In this document: positions 1-33,262 of the stretch, one piece after another
How the letters are laid out: every line of letters begins with the position of its first letter
Numbering within the stretch: the stretch's first letter is position 1
Source of the DNA: a virus
Strand: one strand, 5' to 3'
IMG/VR virus record: IMGVR_UViG_3300044552_000050
Span: 1 to 59,296 of that record
DNA: 59,296 nt
The notes under the pieces: generated by a model
What the model was told of the DNA's origin: nothing
The model's database searches: none
What the model saw: the letters and a program-made list of their open reading frames with translations, nothing else
Made by a program: the position numbers and the translations under genes

Positions 1-127
1 GCAGAACAGTTCATTCGTGATGCCCAACCACGGATTTCCGAATACCATCGCGGTGTGGCGAATGAGCGTCATATCCTTCTCGGCCATTTGGCCCGTATTG
101 CACGGTGAAAACACATGATTATCGGAA
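1..127. repeat. Terminal direct repeat, copy 1 (identical to 59170..59296). Circular-assembly overlap or terminal redundancy.
   Basis: Direct comparison shows bases 1-127 equal bases 59170-59296. The repeat carries the 3' end of ORF 59092..59277 and the ATG of ORF 115..735. Confidence 0.95.
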
Positions 128-735
128 TTACTGGTTACGCGCGGTCGGGAAAAACGACCGTTGCTGAAATCCTATGTGACGATTTTGACTATGCACGAAA
201 ACACATTGCCAAACCACTTCGTTCAATGTGTCGGGCCATCTTGTACCATTCTGGTATGACCTACCAACAGGCAACGAATTACCTTGAAGGCGGTAACAAA
301 GAAGACGTGATTCCGTTTTTCGGTGTCAGCAGTCGCTACCTGCAAGTGACGCTCGGAACGGAGTGGGGTCGCAAACTCGTAAGCCCGAACATTTGGGTCG
401 ATCTGTGGAAGGTCAATCTGAGACCGGGCGACAAGGTGATCAACGATTCCGTCCGTTTCAAGAACGAAGAACATGCGATTGGCGACCTCGGCGGTATCGT
501 GATCCGCGTCGTTCGCCCAGGTGTCGGGCCTGCTGTGTTCAAATTCGGAAAATTCGGCAGCGTGGCCTATAAGCTGACTCGGCTGAAGTGGTTTATCCAT
601 CCGTCTGAACGTGTCGATCTGATTTCTGCTGACTATACCATCGTGAATGATGGAACGGTCGAAGACCTGCGGCAGAAGGTAACGCCAATCCTGACCATCG
701 AACGCACAAGGCGTCGAGAAACGAACAATGGCTGA
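115..735 (+). CDS. Deoxynucleoside monophosphate kinase (T4 gp1-like P-loop kinase)
   Basis: Walker A GITGYARSGKTT. Later blocks LGTEWGR, IVIRVVRPG and IVNDGTVEDL parallel T4 gp1 (ALGTD.., VIHVVRPG, ITNDGSLEEL). Confidence 0.7.
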   Translation: MIIGITGYARSGKTTVAEILCDDFDYARKHIAKPLRSMCRAILYHSGMTYQQATNYLEGGNKEDVIPFFGVSSRYLQVTLGTEWGRKLVSPNIWVDLWKVNLRPGDKVINDSVRFKNEEHAIGDLGGIVIRVVRPGVGPAVFKFGKFGSVAYKLTRLKWFIHPSERVDLISADYTIVNDGTVEDLRQKVTPILTIERTRRRETNNG

Positions 736-1237: not shown

Positions 1238-2292
1238 CTGTGGACTTTCATCACGGTGACTGTCGTGATGTTCTGCTGGATATGGTGCTTAATGATGTGC
1301 AGGTTGATTCCGTGGTCACTGATCCACCATACGGCTTGCTGTCCATCATTAAACGCTTTGGTAAGTCGAATGCAGCACCGGCCAAGTTTGGTTCAGATGG
1401 TGCATTCGCGCGCGCATCTAAGGGTTTTATGGGCAAAGAGTGGGACGGTACAGGCATTGAGCGTGATAGCGTGTTTTGGGGGCTTGTCCTTGATGTGATG
1501 AAGCCTGGGGCATTCTGTCTCGCATTCAGTTCTGCACGTACAGGCCACCGTCAGGCGGCAGCTATGGAAGACGCAGGATTTATAATGCATCCGATGATCG
1601 TGTGGGTATACGGCCAAGGAATGCCGAAGGCACATCCCGCTGATAAGGCGCTGGTGCGCGCAGGCCACGCGCAGACCGCCGAGGATTGGGCAGGATGGGG
1701 GTATGGCGCGCAGGCGCTAAAACCGGCAGTCGAACCAATTTACGTGGCTCAGAAACCGTTTTCCGAGAAAAACGGTGCGGAAAATATCGTGAGGCATGGC
1801 GTCGGTGCCATGAACCTGTCCGGATGTAGAAATGAAAGCGGGCGCTATCCCGCCAACCTCGTATTGGAAGGCTGTAGTGAAGTTCTGGGACAATTCCCAA
1901 ATACGAAAAGCGGTATGCCTGGTATCATGCGTTCTGCTGTGAACAATGGGGCATGTTACGGCAAGGAATCCCGAAAGCCCGGCACACAGATGGCGGGGTT
2001 TGGTGATGAAGGTTCAGCGTCTAGGTTTTTTCCCATTTTTTACCACGCTAAAGCTGGAAAATTTGATCGCGCTGGCATCATGCATCCAACCGTCAAACCT
2101 ATTGGTTTGCTACGATGGTTAATTAAACTCGTGACACCGCCTGGCGGATGTGTTCTTGATATGTTCGCGGGAACGGGAACTACTGGTATCGCTGCCCAGT
2201 TAGAAGGCTTCAATGCAATTCTTATTGAAGCTGATGACCAATACGCAGCGGAAATTAATGCTCGTTTTGCCGGGTACGAACTGTTTGAGTAG
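1234..2292 (+). CDS. Beta-class N6-adenine/N4-cytosine DNA methyltransferase
   Basis: DPPY motif (VVTDPPYGL) at the N-terminus. HPTVKP and SAM motif LDMFAGTGTTG near the C-terminus (motif order IV then I). Confidence 0.85.
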   Translation: MTVDFHHGDCRDVLLDMVLNDVQVDSVVTDPPYGLLSIIKRFGKSNAAPAKFGSDGAFARASKGFMGKEWDGTGIERDSVFWGLVLDVMKPGAFCLAFSSARTGHRQAAAMEDAGFIMHPMIVWVYGQGMPKAHPADKALVRAGHAQTAEDWAGWGYGAQALKPAVEPIYVAQKPFSEKNGAENIVRHGVGAMNLSGCRNESGRYPANLVLEGCSEVLGQFPNTKSGMPGIMRSAVNNGACYGKESRKPGTQMAGFGDEGSASRFFPIFYHAKAGKFDRAGIMHPTVKPIGLLRWLIKLVTPPGGCVLDMFAGTGTTGIAAQLEGFNAILIEADDQYAAEINARFAGYELFE

Positions 2293-2301
2293 GAGGTTAA
2301 T

Positions 2302-2478
2302 TTGGCATCGTATAAAGAAAACTTTGCAGATGGAAAGTTGAAAGCAGAAGAAGCTGTGCGAGAAATGAAGCGTACACAGTTCCCAGGTATTATTGCAAAG
2401 GAATATCATTCCATAAATAATCCTGATGTAAAAAATAGTTTTTTATGGCATATAGCCGAATATATTATACAGAAATAA
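2302..2478 (+). CDS. Hypothetical 58-aa protein, below the ORF-track cutoff
   Basis: TTG start 5 nt after AGGAGG (2291-2296). Translation MASYKENFADGKLKAEEAVREMKRTQFPGIIAKEYHSINNPDVKNSFLWHIAEYIIQK. Ends 6 nt before the terminator hairpin. AT-rich. Confidence 0.5.
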   Translation: MASYKENFADGKLKAEEAVREMKRTQFPGIIAKEYHSINNPDVKNSFLWHIAEYIIQK

Positions 2479-2484
2479 TTTTTG

Positions 2485-2519
2485 ATATGTGCGGAAAAAA
2501 TTATTTATTCCGCACATAT
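2485..2519. terminator. Hairpin terminator shared by convergent genes
   Basis: 11-bp perfect stem ATATGTGCGGA / TCCGCACATAT with a 13-nt A/T loop and T-rich flanks. Lies between the + ORF ending at 2478 and the - ORF ending at 2523. Confidence 0.7.
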
Positions 2520-2522
2520 ACA

Positions 2523-3029
2523 TTATTTTTCAGAAAATTCTTCTCTTGATTTTTCTTTTTCAGTTTTAACGAATATATCTTTTTCACCGTCGTTTATATT
2601 TTCATTGCTATCTTGCAGTTTCTTGAGTTTTATTTTTATTGTCTCACCGTAAACATCGTCTGCTGACGTTGATAGATCAACGATAGTGCCAACTAAGCCG
2701 CCGAACACAATGTTACCAAATATCCAACCTTTGTTATGGCTTTTATCAACACCTGTTATTGATGTAAAACCATATTTTTGACAGCGTATAATAAGGTTGC
2801 TTCGACTTTTTTCTACAGTAAATATGCCCGGTGTAACTAAGTTAGCAACAGATTTACCCTCTCTTGTTACATCGCACGATACGCCAGGAGGGTCAGAATT
2901 TATAGAAATAGTTTGCTTTGGTGGTTCTATAATGGTGGCACAACCGGATAATGCCACTAATAAGGAAGTAAAAGACAATCTGTTTAAGATATTCACTTTT
3001 ATGCCCCAAATGTCTATAAGCAGAGGCAT
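2523..3029 (-). CDS. Lipoprotein of unknown function (AT-rich moron)
   Basis: Signal peptide plus lipobox LVALSGC. An internal GTG at 2996 would give MNILNRLSFTSLLVALSGC. Contains GNIVFGGLVGTIVD, a motif typical of a bacterial lipoprotein family. Clearly lower GC than its neighbours. Confidence 0.7.
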   Translation of the reverse strand: MPLLIDIWGIKVNILNRLSFTSLLVALSGCATIIEPPKQTISINSDPPGVSCDVTREGKSVANLVTPGIFTVEKSRSNLIIRCQKYGFTSITGVDKSHNKGWIFGNIVFGGLVGTIVDLSTSADDVYGETIKIKLKKLQDSNENINDGEKDIFVKTEKEKSREEFSEK

Positions 3030-3801: not shown

Positions 3802-4463
3802 CAGATGAAAAATTCCATCAGCCTTTGGCGGCGCTGCTGCACGGACATAAGCCCTGTGATGCCGCCGTTCACGATCCGACGTGCCTGTGTGAAGTTGCCA
3901 GCGTCGATCGCGCAGTTCACGCAGTTCACGGTCCAGAACTCACCAGCCACATGCAGCCCGAGGTTTGGCTTTGCCACGGCGTCAGGGCTCCCGATCAGAT
4001 CGAGGCCCAAACGGTTGCCGTACAGTCGATAGTTACCGCGCCCGGTAATCTGGATTGCGCCACGACCGCGATACAGCCAGCCGTCATTCACCCCCGTATT
4101 GCCCATACGATTGTTGTACACGCGGTTTGCGAGTGCCTGGGGGTTATGTGCGTATGGTTCTGCTGTGGCGAGCGTGGGGAAGCGTGTGGGCCACACAGCG
4201 AATATCTGTTCGGCAGTGTAATCGAGGTTTTCCGACCACAGACGATACCCGCCCGTTTCAACCACGGTCTGCGCGATGAACTCGCACAGCCGTTCAACGG
4301 TGGTGAGCTGATAGCGGTCGGATGCTTCAGCGAAGAACAAAGCAACGTCCGTGCTATTTTTCGCAATTTTGGAGATCAGCATACCGAACGTCTCAACGCC
4401 CGGTATGCCGTCTTCCATTACGCCGAGTCTGGACTGTGCCAGTTCCCAATCAATATCCGTCAT
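3801..4463 (-). CDS. Endolysin, glycoside hydrolase family 19 (chitinase-like)
   Basis: GH19 signature NDGWLYRGRGAIQITGRGNY. Followed by the spanin genes. Confidence 0.85.
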   Translation of the reverse strand: MTDIDWELAQSRLGVMEDGIPGVETFGMLISKIAKNSTDVALFFAEASDRYQLTTVERLCEFIAQTVVETGGYRLWSENLDYTAEQIFAVWPTRFPTLATAEPYAHNPQALANRVYNNRMGNTGVNDGWLYRGRGAIQITGRGNYRLYGNRLGLDLIGSPDAVAKPNLGLHVAGEFWTVNCVNCAIDAGNFTQARRIVNGGITGLMSVQQRRQRLMEFFI

Positions 4464-4474
4464 ACACGCAGAGA

Positions 4475-4493
4475 ACTCACGTGGCGCGTGAGT
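4475..4493 (-). promoter_or_regulatory. ACTCAC-N7-GTGAGT dyad, copy a
   Basis: Sense strand reads TTGACACTCACGCGCCACGTGAGT, ending 13 nt upstream of the endolysin ATG. Confidence 0.6.
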
Positions 4494-4505
4494 GTCAAGG
4501 TGAAA

Positions 4506-4808
4506 TTATGACGTTGTGATTGTAGGTTCAGTGTAGGCCGCGACCTTACCCTCCTTGATGATAAGATTACCCGGGGCGAGCGACAACCATTCGTCCTGAG
4601 TCAGTGCAATTACCTGAGTAATGGACGTGAGCCAGCTTGGTTGTGAGGAATACACGTTAAGGTCAACAAGTCCCGCAACTGGGTATGCGCCAAGCATGGT
4701 CGAGGATGGGAACGCATAATACTGCGCCGGATAGTCGGCTTTCCACCATACTGGCGTCTCTGTGATTGTCAGTGTCGGGATGTCTGCAGTCGTTGTGTCT
4801 GTTGTCAC
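4506..4808 (-). CDS. Hypothetical protein; possible tail-fibre assembly or accessory protein by position
   Basis: 100-aa ORF overlapping the tail-fibre stop by 4 nt. No recognised motif. Confidence 0.5.
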   Translation of the reverse strand: MTTDTTTADIPTLTITETPVWWKADYPAQYYAFPSSTMLGAYPVAGLVDLNVYSSQPSWLTSITQVIALTQDEWLSLAPGNLIIKEGKVAAYTEPTITTS

Positions 4809-6502
4809 GATACGATGCCTTCAACAGTTATGGTCACTAAGAATGGATTTGTGGAGTTTGCACTGCCGTTGATGCAACGGAGTGGCACACTGCTTGTTGT
4901 CGTACCTAGAGATGTTTTTGCCGAGTTCAGACCAACCACGATACTAGCGGCAGCCCCTGATGACAGATCAATGCTTCCCAACCCAATAACATTCGGTACA
5001 GAAGCGAATGTTATTGGGAAAGAGGCTATCACATTGCCGCTGCTGTCAGGTGTGACTTTAAACTGAAACGTCTGTCGTAGAACACTGCGCCCGGTTCCGT
5101 CATTCATAGGCGTCTTGGTGTACGTTCCGCCTGAGATTACGCCAGCGGTGGTCAGTTCGGACGTAAGCGCCGTAGTCCCTGCGGCACTAACAATTCGGCT
5201 TCCTGTAGTGAAATTCCAATAAAATGTATTCCCAGCACTCGTTAAAAACAGAACACCAGACGCGCTAACTCCGTTGGTTTCTTGGGCGTATAGTTGGAAC
5301 CTTGTGGTCGCGTCGGCCTGGGAAACTACGGCAGGTCCATAGTTTGTTTGCCCTGGAGTGCTGGCCGGATTAGGGTTAGCCAGTAACAGCGCTGATGACA
5401 TTATATCGCCTGCTTTGTTCACTTTCGTAGCATCAGCAGCTTCTCGTAGCACCGCTTCAGCCGATACAGCATTCGCAATGGCCGTTGTATCAACACTGCT
5501 GTTAAGAATGGAGTTGGGGGCACCCATCACCCCGATGAAATATGCGCCTTCCCCCCACGAGTTTGATGTGTCCATTGCGAGACCATGACGTATTTCGGTC
5601 GCGGCTGCGCGCCATGGCGACGTAACAGACAGCCCGAAATACGTCATGGTCGTGGCGCCGATGTTCGACCCATATATGCCAATGGCAGCAGTTCCAGAAG
5701 TCTGTGACGTATCGCACACCAGAAACGCATACTCAGTACCGGCAGAAAGAACGACAACACTGCTGAATACAAACATGACTTCGGCAGCCGTAGCAGCAGC
5801 ACTTGCCGTGTATTCTGCCGTTGCGACAATGGTATTAACACTGTGGTCGGTGTTCAGTGTCGTAATAGCCAGCTTGTATGTATGGTTCGCTATCAGGTCG
5901 AGCAGGAGTCCCACACCTTTCACGGTGTAGTCCTCTGCACCTACAGTGAGAACGACGCCCTTCAGATTGTAGCTACTGGTAGACTGCGAACGGTCTGTAT
6001 CAGTCGGTATCGAAAACACGTAGGGTGACAGATAGCCTGTCATGGACGCCGACCAAGACAATACGCCGGTCTTGTCCACCGTGAGACCTGTGCCTACTTT
6101 CACGCCGCCGAGTGTACTGGCTGTTGCGGCAGGCAGTGTGTAATCGCTCCCGCTTCCACCACCCGAAGAAATCACCGTCCACGCGCTGCCGTCGAACTTA
6201 TAAAAAGCACTCTTGGACGCCACGTAAAACTGGAAACCAGCCTGCGCGGTAAAGTAGGACCATGCAGCGTTATCGTATGCAGCAATGGAATTGGCGTTCG
6301 CTGTCGCGGATGCCGAAAGCAGGTAAACATCACCCTGCGCCGGGGACGCGGGCACAGCATCGACAATATCGAGGGCGCGCGCCTGCGTGAAAACCGAAAT
6401 CGCAAGCCAGTTGGCGTTTACGCCGTCAGCCCATCCATCTTCACCAGCGGTCCAGCCGCCAGTGATACCAAGACCCGGTAACGCTCTGCTTGTTGTGGTC
6501 AT
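4805..6502 (-). CDS. Tail fibre protein (DUF2793-like N-terminus)
   Basis: N-terminus LPGLGITGGW...WADGVNANWLAISVF...PASPAQGDVYLL...AYDNAAWSYF...FDGSAWTV fits the DUF2793 pattern. Contains the LPAATASTLGGVKVG fibre motif and an Ala/Ser/Thr/Gly-rich body. Last large gene of the tail module. Confidence 0.7.
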   Translation of the reverse strand: MTTTSRALPGLGITGGWTAGEDGWADGVNANWLAISVFTQARALDIVDAVPASPAQGDVYLLSASATANANSIAAYDNAAWSYFTAQAGFQFYVASKSAFYKFDGSAWTVISSGGGSGSDYTLPAATASTLGGVKVGTGLTVDKTGVLSWSASMTGYLSPYVFSIPTDTDRSQSTSSYNLKGVVLTVGAEDYTVKGVGLLLDLIANHTYKLAITTLNTDHSVNTIVATAEYTASAAATAAEVMFVFSSVVVLSAGTEYAFLVCDTSQTSGTAAIGIYGSNIGATTMTYFGLSVTSPWRAAATEIRHGLAMDTSNSWGEGAYFIGVMGAPNSILNSSVDTTAIANAVSAEAVLREAADATKVNKAGDIMSSALLLANPNPASTPGQTNYGPAVVSQADATTRFQLYAQETNGVSASGVLFLTSAGNTFYWNFTTGSRIVSAAGTTALTSELTTAGVISGGTYTKTPMNDGTGRSVLRQTFQFKVTPDSSGNVIASFPITFASVPNVIGLGSIDLSSGAAASIVVGLNSAKTSLGTTTSSVPLRCINGSANSTNPFLVTITVEGIVS

Positions 6503-6505: not shown

Positions 6506-9124
6506 TTAGTTCCCGTAGTTATTGCCATAGCTTTTACCATATCCACCCGGCAGAATCACAGTCACGTCATAGGACATAAGCGATGTGAAACCGTCACGTT
6601 CTGAGAGGACGCGAACAACACCCTGTCCGTTATCCCCGAAGTCAGAAAGCTGCACTGTCTGGCTCGTTCCAGTCAGGCCCGAGTAGGTTTTCAGCACGTT
6701 GCCGCTAGAGTCCAGCAATTCAACCGTGGTTGTCTGGTCCGTTTCCGGTGCCATATCGCCATCAGTCCACAGTGTCGCAACAGGTGATTCAGTCGTCCTG
6801 TTGCGTCGCGCCCATGTCACGTCGAAGGATGCGCCAGACGCAATCTGCACGGTGTCCAGTGTGCTACCGGCCACGAGCACATTGGCGGGACGCAGCGGCA
6901 GGTATGGCCGGTCGGTCAGTGTGTATTTTACGTCAGTGGCATCGGCAATCGCCAACTCACCTTTAGCCGTCAGTGTCGTCAGCTTGTAATCGACCAGTGA
7001 TCCTGCGCCGCGTTCGGACAGGTCGAACACAAGGCTGTCTGTCGTCAGCATCCAGACAGTCGTGCCTTCCGGCCAAGCGCGCGGAACCGTGTCAAACAGA
7101 CCGCGCGCTAATGACCAACCCCCGGCAGTCGAGCCGGTTATGAGTGCAAATTCGTCAGCCGTTTCGCCAGTGCTTCCGATCAGCAGCAAAACACCCGTGG
7201 CAGCGGCCATGCTACCTGTGATCGCGCCGAACACTGCTCCGGTAGTGCTGCTTTCGCGGACCAGTGCGCTGCCGAGGGTAGTTATGCCAACAGGTGCTAC
7301 ATTGGTGACGTAGCCTGTCGAGGTTGCGCCTGTCACGTCGGTAGTTGTGCCGTTCAGGTTGACCTGCGTAATGCTGGTGTTGTCGGTCGCGGTCAGGATA
7401 ATCGAACAAACCTGTGGGTATTCGTAGGCATCCGACACGACCTCACCGCTTTCATCAATCAACCAGCGCGGCGGTGTTATCACTTTGACATCGCTGACCG
7501 GTGTAGGTGCTGCCGTCGGATTCGTCCAACTGGTTGATGGGCTGCTGGAAAACGCTGTGACCGGAAGTGAAAACACGTCTTCGGTCAGATTTATGTGTAT
7601 CTGCGGGCTGCCGTTTTTGCCACCGTCCACCTTCAACACACGACAGATAAGGCCATCCATTTCATAACCTGGTTCCGGATAATTCAGCATCACTACATCG
7701 CCCGGCACCAGGTCCCACATCGTTCGATCGGTGTCACCCTCTAGCGTGGCAAATGGCGCGCTCACCGTCCGAAGATCGCGCTGCGCTGCTTTCATGGCTA
7801 CCGTGGCTGACCGGAACGCAGTGTACGTTTTCGTTGTGGAAACTATATTGCCCTGAATGGAAATGTTGGCAGAATTTTGCAAACTGACTGAGTCGCTGTC
7901 CTCATTCTGGTCATTCGTGTACTGCACTACCACTTCGTTCGTGGTCTCCGTGTACAGCTTCCGTGAGAAGTCGGTGAGCGTAAAGTTGCTCCTATCCAGA
8001 ACCGGCAACGAGGTGGTGTCGTAATCCCCGCGAATGAGTCGAATTTCAATCAGGCCGGTGCTTGGACGAACCGCAACAATCCCTTCAATGTGGGCAAGGA
8101 TGTTGCCGATCATATCTTCAATGGACTGCTGTTGATCCCATTTGTACGCGATGCCGTAACCTTCTTCATACACGGTTTGGGACGCCGCGTTCCACTTATC
8201 CATGTCGAAATTGGCAACGGGTTCGCCCATCCCCCATACCTGGTCGGTCATGGCTTCAAATATGAAGTGGACGGGGTTGACCTGCCCTTTACCTGCAAAG
8301 CGTGCTGTATAGTTAGACAACCAGTAATAGGTGGCATCGTTGTTATACCAACCGTGAAAGACGTAGTGGATGGAAATGATAACGCCATTGACCTGAATGC
8401 CGACAGCAGGCGTTCCGCTTGGTACACCTTCAATAAGGTCTTTCAATTTTTTCTGGTACGACGGGGAAGATGGGTCTAGGCCGGAATAGATAGGCTCTGA
8501 AATACCACCAACTGTAATTTCATTGTTCTCTGCATCGACGTTGATTTCTGTACCGTCAATGGTCAGAGTTGTGCCATCAATTTTACAACGGCTACCACCT
8601 ACCTGAGTATAGACGCTTTGCACCAACACTTCCGATACACCGTTCACGGTCACAGTCGCACCGTTAACGGTCACTTCCTTGGAGGAACTGATAATCGCGT
8701 ATGTCTGATCCAGCGGGGTTTTAGGCAGGCGATACAGTCTGAACCACAAATCTCTCAGATATGGATTATTCGCCCCCCATTTGAAACCTGCAAAACCGTC
8801 CGCATCGTGGAAGAATGCCGATGCAATTCCGCGATAGGATGGTGCAGTTGCAGGGGTCAGACCATACTTTCCAGATAATTCAGGAGTTATTACTTGATCT
8901 GAACCCCCGCAAAGGAAGTCGATATAGCCTCTTATGCCGCCTTCCTTACCGTCTCCGCCAAACAGGTTGTCATTCTGGACATACACAGTATTATTAGTGG
9001 TCGAGCCTTCCCACATGGATTTTTCGCCATAGAAAACTGCCTCAAAGGTATCGACAGCCTGACAAACACCCCAATGCTGAGACATATGGTAGTTGTTTAC
9101 AACAACTTTCCCACTCTTACCCAC
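6506..9124 (-). CDS. Host-specificity / central tail tip protein (lambda J-like, GTA g15-like)
   Basis: 872 aa with a GTG start. N-terminus GKSGKVVVNNYHMSQHWGVCQ..VFYGEKSMW resembles the start of J-type proteins. Lies downstream of the hub protein. Confidence 0.7.
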   Translation of the reverse strand: MGKSGKVVVNNYHMSQHWGVCQAVDTFEAVFYGEKSMWEGSTTNNTVYVQNDNLFGGDGKEGGIRGYIDFLCGGSDQVITPELSGKYGLTPATAPSYRGIASAFFHDADGFAGFKWGANNPYLRDLWFRLYRLPKTPLDQTYAIISSSKEVTVNGATVTVNGVSEVLVQSVYTQVGGSRCKIDGTTLTIDGTEINVDAENNEITVGGISEPIYSGLDPSSPSYQKKLKDLIEGVPSGTPAVGIQVNGVIISIHYVFHGWYNNDATYYWLSNYTARFAGKGQVNPVHFIFEAMTDQVWGMGEPVANFDMDKWNAASQTVYEEGYGIAYKWDQQQSIEDMIGNILAHIEGIVAVRPSTGLIEIRLIRGDYDTTSLPVLDRSNFTLTDFSRKLYTETTNEVVVQYTNDQNEDSDSVSLQNSANISIQGNIVSTTKTYTAFRSATVAMKAAQRDLRTVSAPFATLEGDTDRTMWDLVPGDVVMLNYPEPGYEMDGLICRVLKVDGGKNGSPQIHINLTEDVFSLPVTAFSSSPSTSWTNPTAAPTPVSDVKVITPPRWLIDESGEVVSDAYEYPQVCSIILTATDNTSITQVNLNGTTTDVTGATSTGYVTNVAPVGITTLGSALVRESSTTGAVFGAITGSMAAATGVLLLIGSTGETADEFALITGSTAGGWSLARGLFDTVPRAWPEGTTVWMLTTDSLVFDLSERGAGSLVDYKLTTLTAKGELAIADATDVKYTLTDRPYLPLRPANVLVAGSTLDTVQIASGASFDVTWARRNRTTESPVATLWTDGDMAPETDQTTTVELLDSSGNVLKTYSGLTGTSQTVQLSDFGDNGQGVVRVLSERDGFTSLMSYDVTVILPGGYGKSYGNNYGN

Positions 9125-9317
9125 GTTGCTTCATCCTCTCGACCACATCAGCGCCGCGCCAGTCAGTGCGCGCAACAAATTCAGCAGCATCGATTCCATG
9201 TTTCATGAAGTTGCGAAATTCCTCATGAGAAAAACCACACAGATAAAACCACCGCCGTATTCCTGATGGGCAGTATTCGGGTTTCACAGCCGATATTTCA
9301 GCCATCGTCACGCGCAT
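9117..9317 (-). CDS. Hypothetical 66-aa protein
   Basis: ATG at 9317, 2 nt after the upstream TGA. Overlaps the J-like GTG start by 8 nt. Translation MRVTMAEISAVKPEYCPSGIRRWFYLCGFSHEEFRNFMKHGIDAAEFVARTDWRGADVVERMKQRG. Confidence 0.5.
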   Translation of the reverse strand: MRVTMAEISAVKPEYCPSGIRRWFYLCGFSHEEFRNFMKHGIDAAEFVARTDWRGADVVERMKQRG

Positions 9318-9319: not shown

Positions 9320-9544
9320 TCAGACCTTCTCTTTGAAGCGGTTTATCTGGTTGTCCCACCAACCGAGGCAGTTGGGCGACTTGACGATCACGGACCCGGC
9401 TATCACGGGCATGGGCATGCCTGACTGAGCGGTTGGACCAGACGCCGCCGACGCTGACGTTGATGGCGGTTTAGGCATCAACAGCAGGGATGCTGCCATC
9501 ATAGCCACGGCAATTACAACCATGATAATCATTGCGATGGGCAT
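9320..9544 (-). CDS. Small membrane-anchored tail protein (gpI C-terminus-like, or the N-terminus of fused J-type proteins)
   Basis: MPIAMIIMVVIAVAMMAASLLLMPKPP...MPMPVIAGSVIVKSPNCLGWWD. A hydrophobic N-terminus followed by a pattern like the start of GTA g15. Confidence 0.45.
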   Translation of the reverse strand: MPIAMIIMVVIAVAMMAASLLLMPKPPSTSASAASGPTAQSGMPMPVIAGSVIVKSPNCLGWWDNQINRFKEKV

Positions 9545-10482
9545 AGCGGACTCCTTGCGCGGAACAGACCTTCCAGCCAAGTTGCAAGCCGGTTTTCTGA
9601 GTGTGGTGAAACCGTGATGCCGAGGCTGTCGCAGACAAACATCACGGTTTCAATGGGATCGGTGCTAAGGCTGTCCGTTGCCACGGTGATATGCGCGTCA
9701 ATGTCAGCGGAATGGTCGTAATTCCAAACCTGCCGAAAATCGTCCAATGTCCCGCACGAAGGATTTATGACGCGCATGGTGGCATAGAATTTTCTGATGC
9801 AGGTTTCAGGGTCGCGGACCATCTGAATGAACGTCGCATCAGGGTAAACCTCCCTTAGATCGTCCATATGGAACTGGTGCCAGTTGTCACGCAGGACCAT
9901 TCGGCTGCCGGGCCGGTAATAATCCCATTCCTCCAGAAGCCTGCGATGGTAACGGAGCGCTGGCCGCATGTCCTGCTCCAGCCACCTGCTGAAATAGGTC
10001 TGCCAGTTGAACATCGTTCCCCATACCGGCGACCAGAAGGTGTTTGTCATTATTTCGCTGTCAGATGCGCCAGAAAGCGGTGAGCGGCCACCTACCAACA
10101 TGGCACCGACTTTTGCGCTTATGGCGTTGTGGGCTGCCTCACGGGCCGTCCTGATGCGCCGTATGTCGTCCATCGGGTTTGCATGCCGTGGAGGTGCCTG
10201 ATAGCGCGCCTCCCACGTCTCAGGCACCCGAATGCCGTCAATCTGAGCAAGTGCGTTCTGTAGAAACGAACCACCTGAGCGCGGCATGCCGATTATAAAC
10301 ACCGGGCGCGTAAGTGTGCCACGCGGTCGGTTCTCACGCATAACGTGAGTCCGGGCCTGAAGAACATTGTCCATAGCCACGCGCAGTGACTTTTCGGAGT
10401 TTTGCTCGTTCAGCGCGCGCATGCCCGCGATTTCATATTCACCGAGTTGCGCGCGTTCTTTATATCGGTCGATCAGTTTCAT
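9529..10482 (-). CDS. Sulfotransferase-family protein (PAPS-dependent type)
   Basis: PVFIIGMPRSGGSFLQNAL (5'-PSB P-loop-like) and MVRDPETCIRKFY (RDP, 3'-PB-like). The ATG at 10482 overlaps the upstream stop as TGATG. The full ORF extends to 10530. Confidence 0.65.
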   Translation of the reverse strand: MKLIDRYKERAQLGEYEIAGMRALNEQNSEKSLRVAMDNVLQARTHVMRENRPRGTLTRPVFIIGMPRSGGSFLQNALAQIDGIRVPETWEARYQAPPRHANPMDDIRRIRTAREAAHNAISAKVGAMLVGGRSPLSGASDSEIMTNTFWSPVWGTMFNWQTYFSRWLEQDMRPALRYHRRLLEEWDYYRPGSRMVLRDNWHQFHMDDLREVYPDATFIQMVRDPETCIRKFYATMRVINPSCGTLDDFRQVWNYDHSADIDAHITVATDSLSTDPIETVMFVCDSLGITVSPHSENRLATWLEGLFRARSPLCPSQ

Positions 10483-11297
10483 CAGTAATAGTAACTCGTG
10501 CTTGCCGCCGGGTTTTCCAAAGGAATCCACGGCTGGCCCCCAAAATTAGGGCCATTGTTAAACATCGAGTTGCATATTGCCAATGTTTTAGCGCAGCCAG
10601 GTGCAATGTTCACAACCTGTCCAACTGGAATAGAGGAATTGGTGTCGGACAGAATCAGACGCGAGCCGAGTACCTGCAAGATCGACCGTGTTTCTTCAGC
10701 AAACCACAGAACACCGCCCTGATAAACGGACGAATCATAGCTGCCGTTCCAGTTGTCATTGAGCGTGACACCGTTGGACGACGCGGTAACGATAGTTGCG
10801 GTTGTGGTGAACTTGCTTTTGTCCACCATACACTGGCTGTCGTATAGCGCATAACAGCACGTAACCTGCCAGTACCGGCGCAGAGACATTTTTTTCATGT
10901 TGGTGATAGCGGTTTCACACATGATCTTCAGCATGTGATCCTGCCGGTTCACCGCAACCACGCGACCAACAAATATCGAAATGAACTGCTTGTCGGGGTC
11001 ATTTTCATGACCAACGAAAATTTGGGCTGCTACCGGCAGTGTTGGCGCGGACGCAAGGAACAGGTCACTAAAACCAACCGTGATCGGTAGCGTTATCGCT
11101 ATTGTCTGGTTGTCGAGTGTGCCTGACTGAACGATGGAATCGCGGTCAATAGGATAGCGCACGTACACATCGCCATTGAAGGTCACGTCCTCAAGATCGC
11201 AGTCCGTATAGGTGTAACTGGTTGTGCCAATCGTGAACTTATACAGGTGGATCGGCAAACCCAAATTACGGCTTTCTTCAATGCTCGCAAAACTCAT
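10482..11297 (-). CDS. Tail hub protein (GTA g13-like, DUF2163 plus BR0599 C-terminal domain)
   Basis: C-terminal block QVTCCYALYDSQC...GGVLWF...APGCAKTLAICNSMFNNGPNFGGQPWIPLENP matches the BR0599 pattern GCdkt..tC...F.N..NFgGfp.iP. Confidence 0.75.
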   Translation of the reverse strand: MSFASIEESRNLGLPIHLYKFTIGTTSYTYTDCDLEDVTFNGDVYVRYPIDRDSIVQSGTLDNQTIAITLPITVGFSDLFLASAPTLPVAAQIFVGHENDPDKQFISIFVGRVVAVNRQDHMLKIMCETAITNMKKMSLRRYWQVTCCYALYDSQCMVDKSKFTTTATIVTASSNGVTLNDNWNGSYDSSVYQGGVLWFAEETRSILQVLGSRLILSDTNSSIPVGQVVNIAPGCAKTLAICNSMFNNGPNFGGQPWIPLENPAASTSYYY

Positions 11298-11308: not shown

Positions 11309-13045
11309 TCAGCTAAGGCCATCGGTTATGGTGACGGTCTGCGCCGCCTGATAAGGCCGGGATGCGATATTCGTATTAACCGTTGCAACGCTGTCGGTTA
11401 AATACGTGATCGTAATGTCGTCACTCATGAACCGCGAAAGCATCAGCCAACTGACACGAATTATCTGCGAAATGGTGTAAATTGTAGTCCCTGAAACCGG
11501 GTTATCAAGCTGGAACGTAACAGTGCCGTCGGTGTTTGCGGTAAACAGGAGCACGTTTCTGTAAACAATGTCGCCGTTGTCCATTTTAATTTCGATCAGG
11601 CCCAACGTGTCATCGTTGTACAATTCACCAATTTCATTGTTGATAACGATAAAATTGGTACTCGTAAGCACTGTTGCACTGCTCACCGTCAGGTCAGAGA
11701 CAAATGACGATGCGAAAAACTCGCCAGCTTCCCCGCGCATCCGGCAAAAGAAGTCGATCATGTCCTGGGCATTTCCGTTCAGTAGGAACGCCGCCTGTCG
11801 CACGTCCATGCCGAACAGGGCCGGAGCATAATAGTCTGTCAGGCCAAACTGGTTATCAATGGCCTCTCGCTTCCACGAAATGCTGTCACTGACCGGCATT
11901 CCCCACTGTGGCGTGAACGGCAACACTTCCCGTCCATCGGTAAGCGTACCGGCTTCGCCCACGGTGTAATCCGGGTCACTCGCAGGATCACAGATGAACG
12001 ATACCGGGATAACGGATACGGTTGTTGTAAGGTTCTGCAACTGCGGGCCATCAGACAAGCGGCCTAACAGGCCAACGCTCATGCGCGTACCTGGCTGCCA
12101 AGCAAAGTTTGTCGCGGCTGCAAATTGAATCGTGTTCCCGGATAAGCTGTCGATCTTACGCAGTTCAAACTGTTCATCACAGGCAAATACCAGATACGCA
12201 CCTTGGGTTGCCCAACGGGGAATAGCCTCCAGTGACACGGTTTCCGAACCAGTGGGGAGTCCTTCATCAAGCATTACCGTGCGCGTGGGGTCTGCCACGT
12301 ATAGCTGAGACACTGCTTTCCTGCGAAGGATGCTTTTCATCTTCAGACAGTTGTCACCCACAACAAGTGCGGTGAAGGCCAGTGTCCTGCGAGGTGTCTG
12401 GCGCAAGGCGCGGCGTTGCTCAGTACCATCACGGGAGGTTATAATATCAGTTTGATACGAAAGGGTCACGTTTACGGTGTCCTCCCAATTAGCCGAAATG
12501 GGAAGCAGGAACGCTGAGAACCGAGTGCCCGCGATAGGCACGAGTTTGGTGTAATTGATCGCGGACGCGCCGACATTCATATAGCCTGAAAGTGTGGCAA
12601 TTCCTGTAGGGCTGGCAATGATCGAGAACACCAACCGTTCTATCGGGCGCAACGTGTCGCCTTGCGTGAGACCGTTGATGGTGAGACCTGCGTCAGTTGG
12701 TAAAGTCAGGGTGTCGATTTTAACGGATCGCTCGACATAGGTGTTAAAGATCACAGCTTCCACAGACCGAGGTGTGCTTTCGCTGGTAATTTCCCCAAAC
12801 TGAATCAGGTAGGGCGTAAGCCATATCTTGTTGTAAAAGTCCTCGAAAAAGGACTGGATCAGATTGCCAGTAAGGGCGTTCGTGTTCAGTGGCGTAGGCT
12901 GATCGACAGTGCGCGTTGCGTCAACATCCTCTCCAAGCTGCGCGCCAGTCTGCACAAGTTGGGAACGCATGGTCGAAGGCGACGTAAGCAGCGTGTTCAC
13001 TGCATACGTCAGGCCGGGCAGTGTGGTGCCAGTTACCTCGCTCAT
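11309..13045 (-). CDS. Distal tail protein (DUF2460 / GTA g12-like core) with N- and C-terminal extensions
   Basis: The central SRDGTEQRRALRQTPRRTLAF resembles the SG.EeRn..w...RR.y motif of GTA g12. Lies immediately upstream of the hub gene. Confidence 0.5.
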   Translation of the reverse strand: MSEVTGTTLPGLTYAVNTLLTSPSTMRSQLVQTGAQLGEDVDATRTVDQPTPLNTNALTGNLIQSFFEDFYNKIWLTPYLIQFGEITSESTPRSVEAVIFNTYVERSVKIDTLTLPTDAGLTINGLTQGDTLRPIERLVFSIIASPTGIATLSGYMNVGASAINYTKLVPIAGTRFSAFLLPISANWEDTVNVTLSYQTDIITSRDGTEQRRALRQTPRRTLAFTALVVGDNCLKMKSILRRKAVSQLYVADPTRTVMLDEGLPTGSETVSLEAIPRWATQGAYLVFACDEQFELRKIDSLSGNTIQFAAATNFAWQPGTRMSVGLLGRLSDGPQLQNLTTTVSVIPVSFICDPASDPDYTVGEAGTLTDGREVLPFTPQWGMPVSDSISWKREAIDNQFGLTDYYAPALFGMDVRQAAFLLNGNAQDMIDFFCRMRGEAGEFFASSFVSDLTVSSATVLTSTNFIVINNEIGELYNDDTLGLIEIKMDNGDIVYRNVLLFTANTDGTVTFQLDNPVSGTTIYTISQIIRVSWLMLSRFMSDDITITYLTDSVATVNTNIASRPYQAAQTVTITDGLS

Positions 13046-14013
13046 GTGGTCGGGTACGCATAGCCTACGAAGTAGGACGTTTCATTCAGCGGGTAGCCTG
13101 CGTTTGTACCATTGTACGATGTGGCCGTGTCGCGCCGCCATGCAGGAAAGACCATCCATGTCGTGTCCGCAACGGTCAATGTCTGCAACGGGTCCAAACT
13201 TCGCATGTTGACCATGCGGACGCCTGACGGAGTCCCTGCATACATGAAGTTCTTGTTCGCGTCTGTGATGAAGATGGGCATGGGCACCAGCAGGCTCGCA
13301 GACGCGAAATCAGCGTACGCTTGCACCAGCAGCCCATCAGATACGTCATTGCTAAAACCGCCCAAAGCCTCTGTGCCTAGGAAGGTGCCCATAGGTAAAA
13401 AATTGTTCGCTGCCGAGTTTACAAGGAACGTGCGCCAAGGATTAGGATTAGACGCATGCGGAACGTAAACTCCCCCTGGCACACCGCCATTGCCTACGTA
13501 AAGCTGGAAGCCGAAAAGGTAGGAATTATAGTAATTGCGCACGCCGGTGCTCTGGTATTGGGATGTTTTAAGCATTGGCGATGCCGCGCTGATTATTTCG
13601 CCGCCCGTGCTGTCCCCGGTAGTGTATGTGCCAGCAGTATCAAGATACCCAAGGTACAGATGCCGAAACAGGTTGGTTCCGTACTGGACCGCAACGGCCA
13701 GATACGGTTTAGGGGAGGTGCCCGCGAACATATGGATTGCCTGCGGGGCGGAAACGGTTGCTGTCATACCGTCTGCGGATGCAATTACAGGTGAGTACAG
13801 CAGGGCTGTCGATGTTGCGAGTGTCGGCCCGGTCCACATCAGTTTGTGCGTATAGGTGTCAACCACCGTAGCCGACAACGTGAACGTCAGGCCCGACCCG
13901 TACTGGAATGTCAGCGCGGTGGTATTGACCGTCCACCCATTAGCGGCGGCAAAGGTTGCCACAAGGGCTGGAATGTCGGTGATAGCAGCAACGGCTTTTG
14001 TGCTGTAAGCCAT
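13042..14013 (-). CDS. Hypothetical tail-module protein, paralog B
   Basis: ATG at 14013, 1 nt after the upstream stop, with GGAG upstream. Shares blocks with 14015..15010. Confidence 0.6.
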   Translation of the reverse strand: MAYSTKAVAAITDIPALVATFAAANGWTVNTTALTFQYGSGLTFTLSATVVDTYTHKLMWTGPTLATSTALLYSPVIASADGMTATVSAPQAIHMFAGTSPKPYLAVAVQYGTNLFRHLYLGYLDTAGTYTTGDSTGGEIISAASPMLKTSQYQSTGVRNYYNSYLFGFQLYVGNGGVPGGVYVPHASNPNPWRTFLVNSAANNFLPMGTFLGTEALGGFSNDVSDGLLVQAYADFASASLLVPMPIFITDANKNFMYAGTPSGVRMVNMRSLDPLQTLTVADTTWMVFPAWRRDTATSYNGTNAGYPLNETSYFVGYAYPTT

Positions 14014-14014
14014 A

Positions 14015-15010
14015 TCAGTTGGTCTCCATCGCAAAGAATGAACCACCATCGGTACGGTAGGCGTTCTGCGCTACAACGTAAGTCAGGTCGCCCACAGTCA
14101 CCGTATCTGCTGCGGCTGCCGATTGGCCGCTGATGCGTTTGATTCCGTCGAGAACGCCTAATGTTCCACCAGTGGACAGCGTAAGCGTTACGTCTTGCAG
14201 GGACACAGTGCCGTTGTAAAACGGAACGAGGCGCGGCAGGAAGTTCGCGTAACCAAAAACATTTATTGGGTTGTCATTGATCGTCCCTGCACCTTGTGTC
14301 ACACCGAAATTCGAGTCTACGGTGCTGGCGTAGTAAGTGTTCGGCCCGACGCCCACATTCGTTGCCGAAGGACTGTTGGAATTTATGCCGATCCCGCTTG
14401 CCCATGAACCAGACGGCAAAAGAACCTGCATGTTGCTGACGTTTTGATTAGGCTGCGTCCAATACGGGTTGATAAAACTGGTGTGGTCCGCGTTTTGATT
14501 CCGGTAAGTCTGCGGACTAGACGCGGTGGATTGGCTGGAACCGCCAATCACAAGCGGTGCAGCATAATAGGTCGGGTCACAGTAGGGAAGGAACCATCCT
14601 GCATACATGGATTCAAAGACTGTGGATATTTGCACCACAGACATGAACCGCCTGCTACTTGCCGTAATCCAGTAATTCATCGTGCTGTTGTCGAGGTACA
14701 TCCACACAGCAGGCGACACGTTTGCATGCCCTGAAATTCCTGTAGCACTGCTGACGATGCCTGTCATGCCATATACAGCCAGTGCGTATCCACCCGGTGT
14801 TCCAGTGGAGTTAATGAGTTTCAGACCAACGTAAATTGCATCGCCAATGTTCGAGCCAGGACCTTTTAGAACAACCTCAGTAGCACTGGCCGACCATACC
14901 TGCGCCCAAAGCGCATTGGCAGTGTTAAGGTCTGAATTGGTTGTTAAAAACGATATCAGTTTTGCCATATAGTCCGAAGGACTGCTGGCTGTGCCTTTTA
15001 TGGTCGCCAT
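14015..15010 (-). CDS. Hypothetical tail-module protein, paralog A
   Basis: 331-aa ORF directly downstream of the tape measure gene. Shares blocks with 13042..14013. Confidence 0.6.
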   Translation of the reverse strand: MATIKGTASSPSDYMAKLISFLTTNSDLNTANALWAQVWSASATEVVLKGPGSNIGDAIYVGLKLINSTGTPGGYALAVYGMTGIVSSATGISGHANVSPAVWMYLDNSTMNYWITASSRRFMSVVQISTVFESMYAGWFLPYCDPTYYAAPLVIGGSSQSTASSPQTYRNQNADHTSFINPYWTQPNQNVSNMQVLLPSGSWASGIGINSNSPSATNVGVGPNTYYASTVDSNFGVTQGAGTINDNPINVFGYANFLPRLVPFYNGTVSLQDVTLTLSTGGTLGVLDGIKRISGQSAAAADTVTVGDLTYVVAQNAYRTDGGSFFAMETN

Positions 15011-30033: not shown

Positions 30034-30741
30034 TCAGTCAAAATCGTCGTCTTCATCAAGAACATTGTCCGTAAGCGACTCTGTTCCGAATGACGCTTTT
30101 TCACTCATTGAAAGCGTCTGGCGCTCAGACGGCATCTGCACCAGCTTTTCACGCAACGTGCGGCGCAGGTCGTCCATGTAGGTCGAAACAATCTTGGCCT
30201 GTTCATCCGTCAGCTTTGCGCGCTCGCGCAGGTCTTCTTCGGCCATCTGAAGGTGATCCTTCATCATCGAAAACAGGCCGGTCAAAACGTCCAGGACGTC
30301 TTGGGTGTCCCACGCCTCTTGCGCCTCGATCATGAACTTGATGCGCGCGCGTTGTGCGCTCCAGAAGGCCAGATTGATTTCGGGCGGCAGGTTCGACTTA
30401 TTCAAAGTCTTGATAAACTGCGCCGTGCTCATTTTCGGCTTCACAAGGTATGAGCAGGCTTCGCGGAAGTCGTACAGGGTGAAGTTGCCGTCCTTGATGC
30501 ACGGGCAATCCACCAGTCGCTTTTTCACTGTGACAATGTTCAGGTCGAACAGCACCGCGAGGGTGTTGGCCGGAACCGGGCGGCGCATGGCCTGCAAGCC
30601 ACCAACATCGTCCAACGTCTTGCCGCCACGCGCGGACTTGATGGACGATGTAAAGGCAGGGACTTCAGGCTTCGGTTTAGGCTTGCGACCCCTGCGCTTG
30701 GGCGCGCTCTTGATAGGTTCGTCAAACAGGTCATCAGACAT
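30034..30741 (-). CDS. terS: Terminase small subunit (DUF1441/Nu1-like)
   Basis: 235 aa directly upstream of the GpA-type terminase. Basic N-terminus (KRRGRKPKPKP), HTH-like segment, acidic C-terminus. Confidence 0.6.
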   Translation of the reverse strand: MSDDLFDEPIKSAPKRRGRKPKPKPEVPAFTSSIKSARGGKTLDDVGGLQAMRRPVPANTLAVLFDLNIVTVKKRLVDCPCIKDGNFTLYDFREACSYLVKPKMSTAQFIKTLNKSNLPPEINLAFWSAQRARIKFMIEAQEAWDTQDVLDVLTGLFSMMKDHLQMAEEDLRERAKLTDEQAKIVSTYMDDLRRTLREKLVQMPSERQTLSMSEKASFGTESLTDNVLDEDDDFD

Positions 30742-30744
30742 TGG
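30721..30744. repeat. 24-bp direct repeat flanking the methyltransferase cassette, copy 1 (MTase|terS junction)
   Basis: GTCAAACAGGTCATCAGACATTGG here against GTTAAACAGGTTATCAGACATTGG at 31817..31840 (22/24 identical). Confidence 0.85.
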
Positions 30745-31837: not shown

Positions 31838-31840
31838 TGG
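31817..31840. repeat. 24-bp direct repeat flanking the methyltransferase cassette, copy 2 (xis|MTase junction)
   Basis: See 30721..30744. Confidence 0.85.
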
Positions 31841-32024: not shown

Positions 32025-32067
32025 CCACTTACGCACCTTACACGGCAATGATACTCAGTGGATACTA

Positions 32068-32086: not shown

Positions 32087-33262
32087 TCAATCACTCTTCG
32101 GGTGAATTAAGGCATCAGCCCAATCTTGTAGCATTCGCCTGCGCGGCTGCAGGTATGTTGCAGAGTTGTATGCACCACGCACTTTGTTTGCCTCGACATG
32201 GGATAACGCCAACTCAATCCAGTCGTAATCGTAACGGCGCTGTGCTTCATTCAACATCTGCTCATTTGCCCATGTTGAAGCAGTGCTGCGAAAACCATGA
32301 ACTGTTGCTTTTCTATGATAGCCCATACGATGCAGCGCATATAACATCGTGTTTTCAGATATTGCGCCTGTTTTTGACGACCTTGACCAAAATATAAAGT
32401 CATGGCGCGGAGACCGTGGTAGTCTTCTTAATAACTCTTGCGCTTGTAGGCTGAGAGGAATCAAATGCTCTCGACCTGCCTTCATACGTTGTGCTGGAAT
32501 ACGCCACACATCGCCCTGGATTTCTCCCCATCTAGCAAACCTGACTTCATTGGTTCGCGTCCATGTCAAAATCACAAATAGAAGCGCCTCGCGTGTCATT
32601 GGATCGCCGTCATAACTTAGAAGTTTTTCCATAAACGCGCCCATTTCACTGAACAACATGCGTGAGAAATGTTGCGTTTTTCGAGGTCGTGTAACGGCCT
32701 TTTCTAATCTGTAAGACGGGTCGCTCTGTATAAGCCCTGATGCCATAGCCATTGCGGTTATTTCAGCAATATGCTGGCGCGCGCGCTTTAGCATGTCCAA
32801 AGCGCCACGTTCTTCCATTGGTTGTAAAGCAGATAAAATTCGTTTTGGACTTACATCCGTAATACTCAATGGCCCTAAAGCTGGAAGGACATTAGCCTCC
32901 AGACGCCTCCAGACAAGCGCTGCATGAGGTTTTGTTACGTTGACAGACCAGCGCCGGTGCCAGTCTTGGGCACACTCCCCGAATGTAACAGGTCGGACCT
33001 CTTTGCTATCGGGTATAGAAGGGTCTTCGCCAGACTTTAACCGGGCATGCGCCTGATCCCGAAGCCTGCGGGCATCCACGAGGCTTAATTGCGGGTATGT
33101 GCCTAGTGTAAGGGTCTGTTCTTTACCATCAAACCGATAACCCATACGCCATATTCTTGAACCTGAAGGCATCACATGCAGATAGAGCCATCCGCTGTCC
33201 GAGACCTTGCGTGGTCGGAGGCCAGCTTTAAGGTTTCGTATCGCCGTATCTGTCAAAGCCAT
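32087..33262 (-). CDS. int: Tyrosine integrase (P4-type, DUF4102 arm-binding N-terminus)
   Basis: N-terminus LTDTAIRNLK...SGSRIWRMGYRFDGKEQTLTLGTYPQLSLVDAR. Catalytic blocks HGFRSTASTW and ALSHVE...YN. Confidence 0.9.
   Translation of the reverse strand: MALTDTAIRNLKAGLRPRKVSDSGWLYLHVMPSGSRIWRMGYRFDGKEQTLTLGTYPQLSLVDARRLRDQAHARLKSGEDPSIPDSKEVRPVTFGECAQDWHRRWSVNVTKPHAALVWRRLEANVLPALGPLSITDVSPKRILSALQPMEERGALDMLKRARQHIAEITAMAMASGLIQSDPSYRLEKAVTRPRKTQHFSRMLFSEMGAFMEKLLSYDGDPMTREALLFVILTWTRTNEVRFARWGEIQGDVWRIPAQRMKAGREHLIPLSLQAQELLRRLPRSPRHDFIFWSRSSKTGAISENTMLYALHRMGYHRKATVHGFRSTASTWANEQMLNEAQRRYDYDWIELALSHVEANKVRGAYNSATYLQPRRRMLQDWADALIHPKSD

Follow-up and report, generated by a model that had tools for sequence, protein, structure and literature searches.

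A predicted sulfotransferase gene recurs at one position in the tail-tip operon of uncultured Casjensviridae-like phages

Between the tail hub gene and the small tail-tip genes of IMG/VR virus record IMGVR_UViG_3300044552_000050, a stretch of 59,296 nucleotides that we analysed at full length and call the window, lies a gene for a predicted sulfotransferase of the Pfam family Sulfotransfer_3 (9529..10482, minus strand; 317 aa). An earlier note, made from the letters of the sequence, had reported a sulfotransferase-like open reading frame (ORF) here, and the ORF is indeed present on that strand. In the order of transcription, the module encodes the tape measure, two paralogous structural proteins, a phrog_1082 tail protein (11309..13045), the hub (10482..11297), the sulfotransferase, a small tail-tip protein of 74 aa with a hydrophobic N-terminus (small1; 9320..9544; phrog_1180), a second of 66 aa (small2; 9117..9317; phrog_1196), a large tail-tip protein of the gpJ / gene transfer agent (GTA) g15 type (6506..9124; phrog_1101, E 8.5e-182) and a tail fibre with a DUF2793 N-terminus (4805..6502); the genes given here with positions are on the minus strand. 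The hub is of the GTA g13 / phiJL001 Gp84 type, with the domains PF09931 (Phage_phiJL001_Gp84_N) and PF09356 (Phage_BR0599) and a match to phrog_778 at E 4e-61. These hub domains upstream, and Phage-tail_3 (PF13550) in the large protein downstream, bear out the note's placement of the gene between a GTA-g13-like hub and the tip genes. The two paralogous structural genes (13042-15010, minus strand; 323 and 331 aa) lie side by side between the tape measure and phrog_1082 genes, both belong to phrog_687, and a similar pair is present in reference relatives.

The sulfotransferase gene is joined to its neighbours at both ends, as the note had observed. Its start overlaps the hub stop in the sequence TGATG (10480..10484, minus strand), a junction kept in four lineages and found in the same form in the related sequences L004, L005 and L009. 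The conserved start is the ATG at 10482; an alternative GTG at 10530, used by the IMG gene call, would give 333 aa, but in L005 an in-frame stop lies upstream, so this longer start is not conserved. At the other end, the TGA (9529-9531) and the small1 ATG (9544) produce a 16-nt overlap, and the AAGGAG ribosome-binding site and start codon of small1 lie inside the 3' end of the sulfotransferase gene. No obvious Shine-Dalgarno sequence precedes the sulfotransferase ATG. The idea of a promoter or terminator belonging to the gene itself was dropped, as promoter-like and terminator-like sites are no commoner than in shuffled sequence and the sole promoter-like site upstream is not conserved among lineages. 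Since there is no conserved promoter, terminator or ribosome-binding site, and the start overlaps the hub stop, the protein is most likely translated by termination-reinitiation, coupled to the hub, when and where the tail tip is made. We infer its late timing from the co-directional arrangement in the late tail operon. The gene's GC content (0.558) and third-position GC (GC3, 0.629) fall inside the ranges of the neighbouring tail genes (0.50-0.56 and 0.49-0.69), in line with the note's impression by eye. The same holds for the phage sequences L099, L102 and L104 described below, so base composition is not atypical. Neither a membrane helix nor a signal peptide was found in the protein (maximum hydropathy over 19 residues, 0.87), and its sequence predicts a soluble, cytoplasmic product.

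A profile search supports the family assignment, with Sulfotransfer_3 (PF13469) matched end to end and far beyond chance (E 2.5e-20; score 74.1 bits, cut-off 27; profile positions 1-215 of 216). Among proteins of solved structure, those closest in sequence are STF9 of Mycobacterium avium (2z6v, E 9e-9) and STF1 of M. tuberculosis (2zq5, E 1.4e-7); a profile dominated by cellular relatives matches the same two at 1e-73 and 7e-71. The note had compared two segments with the binding motifs for the sulfate donor, 3'-phosphoadenosine 5'-phosphosulfate (PAPS), and both comparisons hold in alignment. The 5'-phosphosulfate-binding loop (P-loop) GMPRSGGS (residues 65-72; 10267..10290, minus strand) aligns with GMPRTGTT of STF9, and the 3'-phosphate-binding region MVRDPETCIRKFY (residues 221-233; 9784..9822, minus strand) contains MVRDPET, an RDP-type motif that aligns with HRDPYK of STF9.

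Within the P-loop (P67-R68-S69-G70-G71-S72), R68 and G70 are invariant in 31 family members, and the first Thr has become Gly or Ala in the window's clade. R223, D224 and P225 are present, R223 being invariant in the family, and at position 231 the window's clade has Lys in place of the usual Ser, which is kept in two other sets of phage enzymes discussed below, P0032 (on contig L009) and group B. In tyrosylprotein sulfotransferases the catalytic base is a Glu, and in the STF branch the corresponding candidate element is K-x-x-x-H. The window protein has R198...H202 (9877..9891, minus strand) as the counterpart of the family's LKsPxH motif, which holds the candidate catalytic Lys and His; Arg takes the place of the Lys, and H202 is invariant in the 31-sequence alignment. 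Both H202 and E91 are conserved in the window protein, and the H202 position is Ile in P0032. All 21 of the residues that are invariant across the 31 members are retained, including R68, G70, R85, W90, E91, H179, H202 and R223.

An AlphaFold model built on the 31 sequences agrees with this picture. Its mean predicted local distance difference test (pLDDT) score is 66. Confidence is good in the core (75-96 over residues 60-90 and 160-306) and poor over residues 1-41 and 92-157. Foldseek against the PDB places the model with STF1 (2zq5, 1.2e-9) and STF9 (2z6v, 9.5e-9; TM-score 0.64). Another 16 sulfotransferase chains match at E <=1e-3; tyrosylprotein sulfotransferases and polyketide sulfotransferase domains come after the two STF enzymes. 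All significant matches at that threshold are sulfotransferases, and P-loop kinases appear among the weaker ones. The structure prediction that the note had suggested as a check therefore supports its proposal. Judged from sequence and model together, the fold and PAPS site are those of a sulfotransferase, and sulfotransferase activity is likely.

The protein is a Sulfotransfer_3 member nearest to the mycobacterial STF1/STF9 branch and shortened at both ends. It shares with STF1 and STF9 the PRxGxx P-loop, the R...WE segment, the K/R-x3-H element and the RDP motif, yet is only ~20% identical to them and carries T71G, K198R and S231K. Compared with cellular relatives of ~410 aa, it is missing ~50-60 N-terminal and ~45 C-terminal residues. 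More generally, the phage proteins (274-318 aa) are shorter than the STF1/STF9 type (~380-430 aa) by ~50-60 residues at the N-terminus and 30-90 at the C-terminus, and none has the full-length architecture of an N-terminal helical region and a C-terminal KHGxHxYS...FGL segment. STF1 and STF9 are genes of bacterial chromosomes, whereas their phage counterpart lies in a late tail operon.

What normally occupies this position? In the Rhodobacter capsulatus GTA (RcGTA) and in lambda, a peptidase gene follows the hub-type gene, and the note had taken the sulfotransferase to sit in the slot of that gpK/g14 peptidase. On this basis, and because nine tail-module proteins of the window returned no NlpC/P60 match (as the note had said), the sulfotransferase could be a functional replacement of the peptidase at the equivalent position. 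Synteny contradicts this reading. We compared the module gene by gene with seven relatives, the reference phages AchV4, A1432, Ab19, RcCWillis and DSS3-P1 (two families) and the nearest outgroup hubs, L096 and L097. In seven of seven, the order is hub, two small proteins and tail protein, with nothing between hub and small1 and no NlpC/P60 gene, so nothing has been replaced. Most of the best 80 IMG/VR relatives likewise have the two small genes right after the hub, and then the tail protein. As these relatives have no gene at all in the slot, the sulfotransferase is an insertion. The protein also lacks sequence or fold similarity to NlpC/P60, and its Pfam matches are confined to sulfotransferase families. 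We therefore reject the peptidase-slot reading and consider a functional replacement hardly credible.

Close relatives of the window sulfotransferase are few: only three among 5.8 billion protein clusters, and 2 of 1.84 billion cluster representatives score below 1e-30. They are found in L004 and in L005-L007, in the same slot and with the same stop/start overlap. The sulfotransferase is 87% identical to that of L004 and 65% to that of L005, the hub 90% and 66%, and the tail protein 88% and 66%. Against L004, its ratio of nonsynonymous to synonymous divergence (dN/dS) is 0.08, at a dS of ~1. At the sequence level the gene is under strong purifying selection and has co-diverged with the tail genes inside its own clade. 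Divergence in step with the tail neighbours, together with a dN/dS of ~0.08, indicates an old, selected late gene. Pattern scans of IMG/VR, GTDB species genomes and Joint Genome Institute (JGI) metagenomes found no further relatives of this group, which we call group A. A tblastn search of 50,697 phage records at E 1e-5 and at E <=1 gave no match; the author of the note knew of no sulfotransferase as a standard tail-module gene, and nothing alike is present in these sequenced phage genomes.

Shortened Sulfotransfer_3 genes nevertheless lie directly upstream of small1 in at least four further uncultured lineages. P0032, on the 1.6-kb contig L009, represents a fourth lineage of group A; it is 33-36% identical to the window protein and is encoded between a hub C-terminus and a small1 homologue, with the TGATG junction. 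In this copy (L009 353-510), the first ~12 codons, counted from the ATG that overlaps the hub stop, are in a different frame from what follows; a frameshift or an assembly error could be responsible, and the copy could be decaying or the break a sequencing artefact. The other three were found by examining short but complete proteins among the remote relatives, and constitute group B: P0064 (304 aa; L099/L100), P0071 (276 aa; L102/L103) and P0157 (277 aa; L104/L105; seen in at least 12 samples). All are phage-borne and share with P0032 the position next to small1, P0071 being separated from its hub by four minus-strand ORFs. All the phage-borne copies run in the direction of the tail genes and end within -16 to +14 nt of the small1 start. 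The note had reasoned that homologues outside tail modules would point to a cargo gene, and none was met with: nine of the nine phage-borne relatives found sit in the same slot. Another short protein, P0054 (343 aa), has a context without phage genes.

In group B the canonical motifs PRSGT[ST], LKSPxH and R[DN]...S are intact. The enzymes of this group are nearer to P0137 and P0100 (42-46% identity), which have the full cellular-type architecture, than to group A (29-33%), and they lack the terminal segments of those two proteins. A scan of IMG/VR for more of group B found none; the corresponding scan of JGI metagenomes returned 33 loci, 0 with a tail-gene match, and these are probably cellular.

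The bearers of the gene do not form one block. In a rough neighbour-joining tree of the tail-protein N-terminus, they fall in at least three separate places among phages lacking it, interleaved with close relatives that are without it. L099, which has the gene, and L014, which does not, are 65% identical in the tail protein and 71% in small1, and this closeness implies that the sulfotransferase is dispensable for the tail and cargo-like in its distribution. L099 and L104 both have it; their tail proteins are 60% and their small1 proteins 62% identical, and their sulfotransferases 35%. The gene is absent from 765 GenBank phages carrying the hub. Synteny thus gives a divided answer: phage-borne relatives are in the same tail slot, but most relatives lack the gene, which makes it accessory. 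Similarly, the note's description of an integral late gene rather than a recent moron stands insofar as the gene is old, co-evolving, wired into the late operon and typical in composition, and fails insofar as it is accessory, cargo-like in distribution and not part of the tail. Among the features of a classical moron, patchy presence among syntenic relatives was found; a dedicated promoter and terminator and an atypical base composition were not. Either the slot upstream of small1 has gained or exchanged Sulfotransfer_3 genes more than once, or the gene was long retained and lost many times. Both histories imply repeated selection for a late-expressed sulfotransferase linked to tail-tip genes.

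The junction between hub and small1 is an accessory-gene hotspot in Casjensviridae-like phages. Its other occupants among IMG/VR relatives are all on the opposite strand (L012, L014, L016-L018, L102). L012 and L013 carry a 247-aa ORF with no assigned function (L012 6947-7690, minus strand), L014 has two ORFs (6846-7590, minus strand), and L017 has a 248-aa ORF with a Lar-like restriction-alleviation gene (PF14354, E 1.2e-6; 6806-8072, minus strand). In L102, the four ORFs between hub and sulfotransferase span 4359-5917 (minus strand), and L099 also has an opposite-strand ORF (about 1-480, minus strand). The occupant of L016 (937-1458) and L018 (6843-7364, both minus strand) is a 173-aa P-loop protein (MIQFMVIGLPRSGTTW...ILHRD) of phrog_10855, annotated 'hydrolase', a large family of >369 clusters that lacks a Pfam domain; PaMx25 and PaMx28 carry their phrog_10855 gene in the replication module. 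As a candidate second sulfotransferase this 'PRSGTT' protein has a weak Pfam match confined to the P-loop (E 0.006) and profile-to-PDB matches to sulfotransferases that are not significant (E 0.14-0.44). Its AlphaFold model (pLDDT 95) has no significant PDB fold match, the best being at E 0.036 and the weak matches being sulfotransferases and kinases.

Such company raises the question of whether the slot is merely a permissive insertion site for an enzyme whose target is a soluble molecule or a protein of the host, in counter-defence or metabolic takeover, for example by inactivating a signalling or toxic small molecule or by draining or redirecting PAPS. The Lar-like gene of L017 and the P-loop protein of L016 and L018, at home in replication modules elsewhere, are compatible with this, as is the report of Sulfotransfer_3 genes with no assigned role among viral auxiliary genes (PMC10580990, PMC8290583). 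However, counter-defence genes are usually expressed early, and in all lineages the sulfotransferase belongs to the late operon; sulfotransferases are never on the opposite strand, where the other occupants lie; and a permissive site alone would hardly account for their return to one exact position beside small1. PADLOC returned no match, nor did NCBIfam. We regard this explanation as distinctly unlikely.

We propose instead that the gene, an accessory linked to those of the tail tip, is expressed late and encodes a cytoplasmic, PAPS-dependent sulfotransferase, a reading to which we give a probability of roughly 0.6. In this model, the enzyme, soluble and cytoplasmic, would act late in infection, taking sulfate from PAPS made by the host and passing it to a hydroxyl acceptor. 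Its function would travel with the tail-tip, receptor-recognition genes without being a building block of the tail. The putative acceptor is a precursor of a host envelope lipid or glycoconjugate, sulfated at the cytoplasmic face and then exported. Sulfation would alter or mask the surface recognised by the neighbouring tail-tip proteins, so that the infected cell, or its debris, might be shielded from further adsorption. An envelope acceptor with surface masking is the weakest step of the model, and we hold it tentatively, at somewhat less than even odds.

To our knowledge, the acceptors of STF1 and STF9 have not been established. We favour a host envelope lipid or glycan over a virion protein because the nearest solved relatives are these mycobacterial STF enzymes and not protein sulfotransferases, because two cellular relatives adjoin genes for SCP2 (a lipid carrier) and DUF1214 proteins, and because an accessory gene linked to receptor-recognition genes typically has the receptor as its target, as is the case for T5 Llp (PMC9586334). 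In two unrelated genomes (L094 5699-8339 and L095 6001-8740), a full-length cellular relative is followed by the DUF1214 gene, and in one of them preceded by the SCP2 gene. This neighbourhood may be a conserved operon and may point to a lipid acceptor for the cellular family.

The position of the gene also invites a virion-directed alternative, in which the enzyme sulfates a component of the particle before or during tail assembly, be it the hub, small1, small2, the large tail protein, the fibre or an attached glycan. Sulfate groups on the particle would affect receptor binding, stability or recognition. In every lineage found, the gene is co-directional and translationally coupled and lies immediately upstream of small1, small2 and the tail protein, as expected for an enzyme acting on its neighbours' products. 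Tyrosylprotein sulfotransferases are the next-best fold matches, and a precedent exists in the glycosylation of mycobacteriophage virions (Freeman et al. 2023, as cited in PMC11256854). Against this, close relatives build the same tail without the gene, as the comparison of L014 with L099 illustrates, and the nearest relatives are of the STF type. Nor does any feature of the hub, small1, small2 or tail protein track the enzyme. Tyr-rich C-termini of the hub and tail protein were considered as sulfation targets and rejected, as they are present in phages without the enzyme, including AchV4 and Ab19, and absent from the tail protein of L004. Sulfation of a virion component is thus unlikely, and we are similarly doubtful of the broader proposal that the sulfotransferase acts on the particle, either by sulfating a tail-tip protein or by riding the tail tip into the next host. 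If true, a sulfate-ester virion or a sulfotransferase-armed virion would be the first such phage particle, and repeated capture at one position would mark a previously unrecognised step of virion maturation.

Several points weigh against the envelope-directed sulfotransferase that we prefer. Late expression leaves a short time for envelope remodelling, and no promoter for expression in a lysogen was found, which weakens the case for masking by classical lysogenic conversion. That the gene is so tightly and repeatedly linked with small1, small2 and the tail protein would suit a role directed at the virion just as well. A PAPS-synthesis gene did not turn up in the ~50 window ORFs with Pfam data, so the enzyme would need host PAPS. 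The acceptor-side region of the model (residues 92-157) has pLDDT <50, and the pocket gives no information. Lastly, three near-invariant positions are changed in the window's clade (T71G/A, K198R and S231K), and with the Ile at the H202 position in L009 this may signify altered or lost catalysis.

Carried to its end, the last point suggests a protein that has lost catalysis and retains the sulfotransferase fold as a structural or assembly scaffold, or as a binding module, of the tail tip. The loss of both termini of the cellular enzymes could be read in the same way, and translational coupling to the hub suggests matched dosage. Yet all strictly invariant family residues are kept, including the P-loop Arg and the 3'-phosphate Arg, and the most conserved block across the phage lineages includes the P-loop. 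The group B enzymes at the same slot have fully canonical motifs, and the tails of close relatives are built without the gene. A purely structural role is very unlikely, and an active sulfotransferase is our working interpretation.

The rest of the genome is that of a Casjensviridae-like, integrase-encoding temperate siphophage. Its first 127 bases (1-127) are identical to its last 127 (59170-59296), indicating a complete circular (or terminally redundant) assembly of ~59.2 kb; the GC content is ~0.54. The best protein matches are to Casjensviridae and relatives, all at <50% identity: AchV4, Rhizobium phage RHph_X2_30, and Rhodobacter and Ruegeria phages. Compared by megablast with the 50,697 phage records, neither the tail region nor 25 kb of the replication region had a match, and a scan of GTDB species genomes with the tail protein, aimed at the host, found no prophage relative. 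Genes identified outside the tail module include the integrase (32087..33262), a gpA-type large terminase, a primase-polymerase, a DUF2800 nuclease, an Enc34-type single-strand-binding protein, ribonucleotide reductase, ThyX, three DNA methylases, ArdA, a GapR-like protein and an endolysin of glycoside hydrolase family 19. GapR is typical of alphaproteobacteria, and the GapR-like gene hints at an alphaproteobacterial host. Genes of DNA modification and anti-restriction are unusually numerous (115-2292, 30734-31849, 50133-50705 and 55253-56990), comprising two N6/N4 methylases, one C5 methylase, ArdA, a DNMK-like kinase (a faint match), ThyX and the GapR-like DNA-binding protein. Two stretches are low in GC: 2001-3000 (0.37), which contains a 168-aa ORF without a Pfam match (2523-3029, minus strand), and 31001-34000 (0.45-0.48), which flanks the integrase. 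Both may be recently acquired cargo or an attachment region.

How does this gene compare with known systems? The tyrosylprotein sulfotransferases TPST1 and TPST2 (and bacterial RaxST by analogy) are second-tier fold matches, with Foldseek E about 4e-6 and an alignable core of the GxPRSGTT P-loop and K...RD. The likeness ends there, as TM-scores are low (~0.4), sequence similarity is limited to the two PAPS motifs, and no candidate sulfation motif in the neighbouring proteins tracks the enzyme. Genes of the same Pfam family have been reported as auxiliary genes in marine and glacier phage genomes, including OM43-phage genomes and Synechococcus phage S-SRM01 (PMC10580990, PMC8290583). Those genes are likewise phage-encoded and have no assigned function, but are described as metabolic cargo rather than as members of a tail operon, and a recurrent position upstream of tail-tip genes is not described for them in either paper. 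A phage sulfotransferase as such is therefore not new. We found no description of the present arrangement, in which a shortened STF-type sulfotransferase is built into the tail-tip operon and returns at one exact position in different lineages, and the sequenced phage isolates that were searched all lack it.

In its genomic setting, the gene calls to mind the small accessory functions of other phages. The llp gene of T5 adjoins the receptor-binding protein gene, and cor of phi80/N15-type phages is likewise found with tail or receptor genes. These genes resemble the sulfotransferase in being small accessory functions linked to receptor recognition, without which the virion can still be assembled. 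Llp of T5 acts by blocking FhuA, the receptor (PMC9586334). Llp and Cor are, however, receptor-binding lipoproteins, non-enzymatic and expressed early or from the prophage, whereas the window product is a predicted cytoplasmic transferase of a late operon for which masking is inferred. A second parallel comes from mycobacteriophages, whose glycosyltransferases glycosylate capsid and tail proteins (Freeman et al. 2023, as PMC11256854 cites it). The shared idea is a transferase that applies a host-made activated donor to structural proteins; the chemistry differs, being glycosyl rather than sulfuryl transfer.

The recurrence of enzymes of one family that are not closely related to each other, together with purifying selection, argues for a real and repeatedly selected function tied to the receptor-recognition genes. 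Sulfation is a currency of host-microbe recognition, as seen in Nod factors, sulfated lipopolysaccharide, mycobacterial sulfolipids and the RaxX peptide, and we know of no established role for it in phage biology. If the acceptor is a host surface molecule, the phage would be masking receptors by enzymatic means; if it is a virion protein, the particle would be modified in a new way. In either case, recurrence of the gene in related uncultured phages suggests a sulfation step, late in infection, that has gone unstudied.

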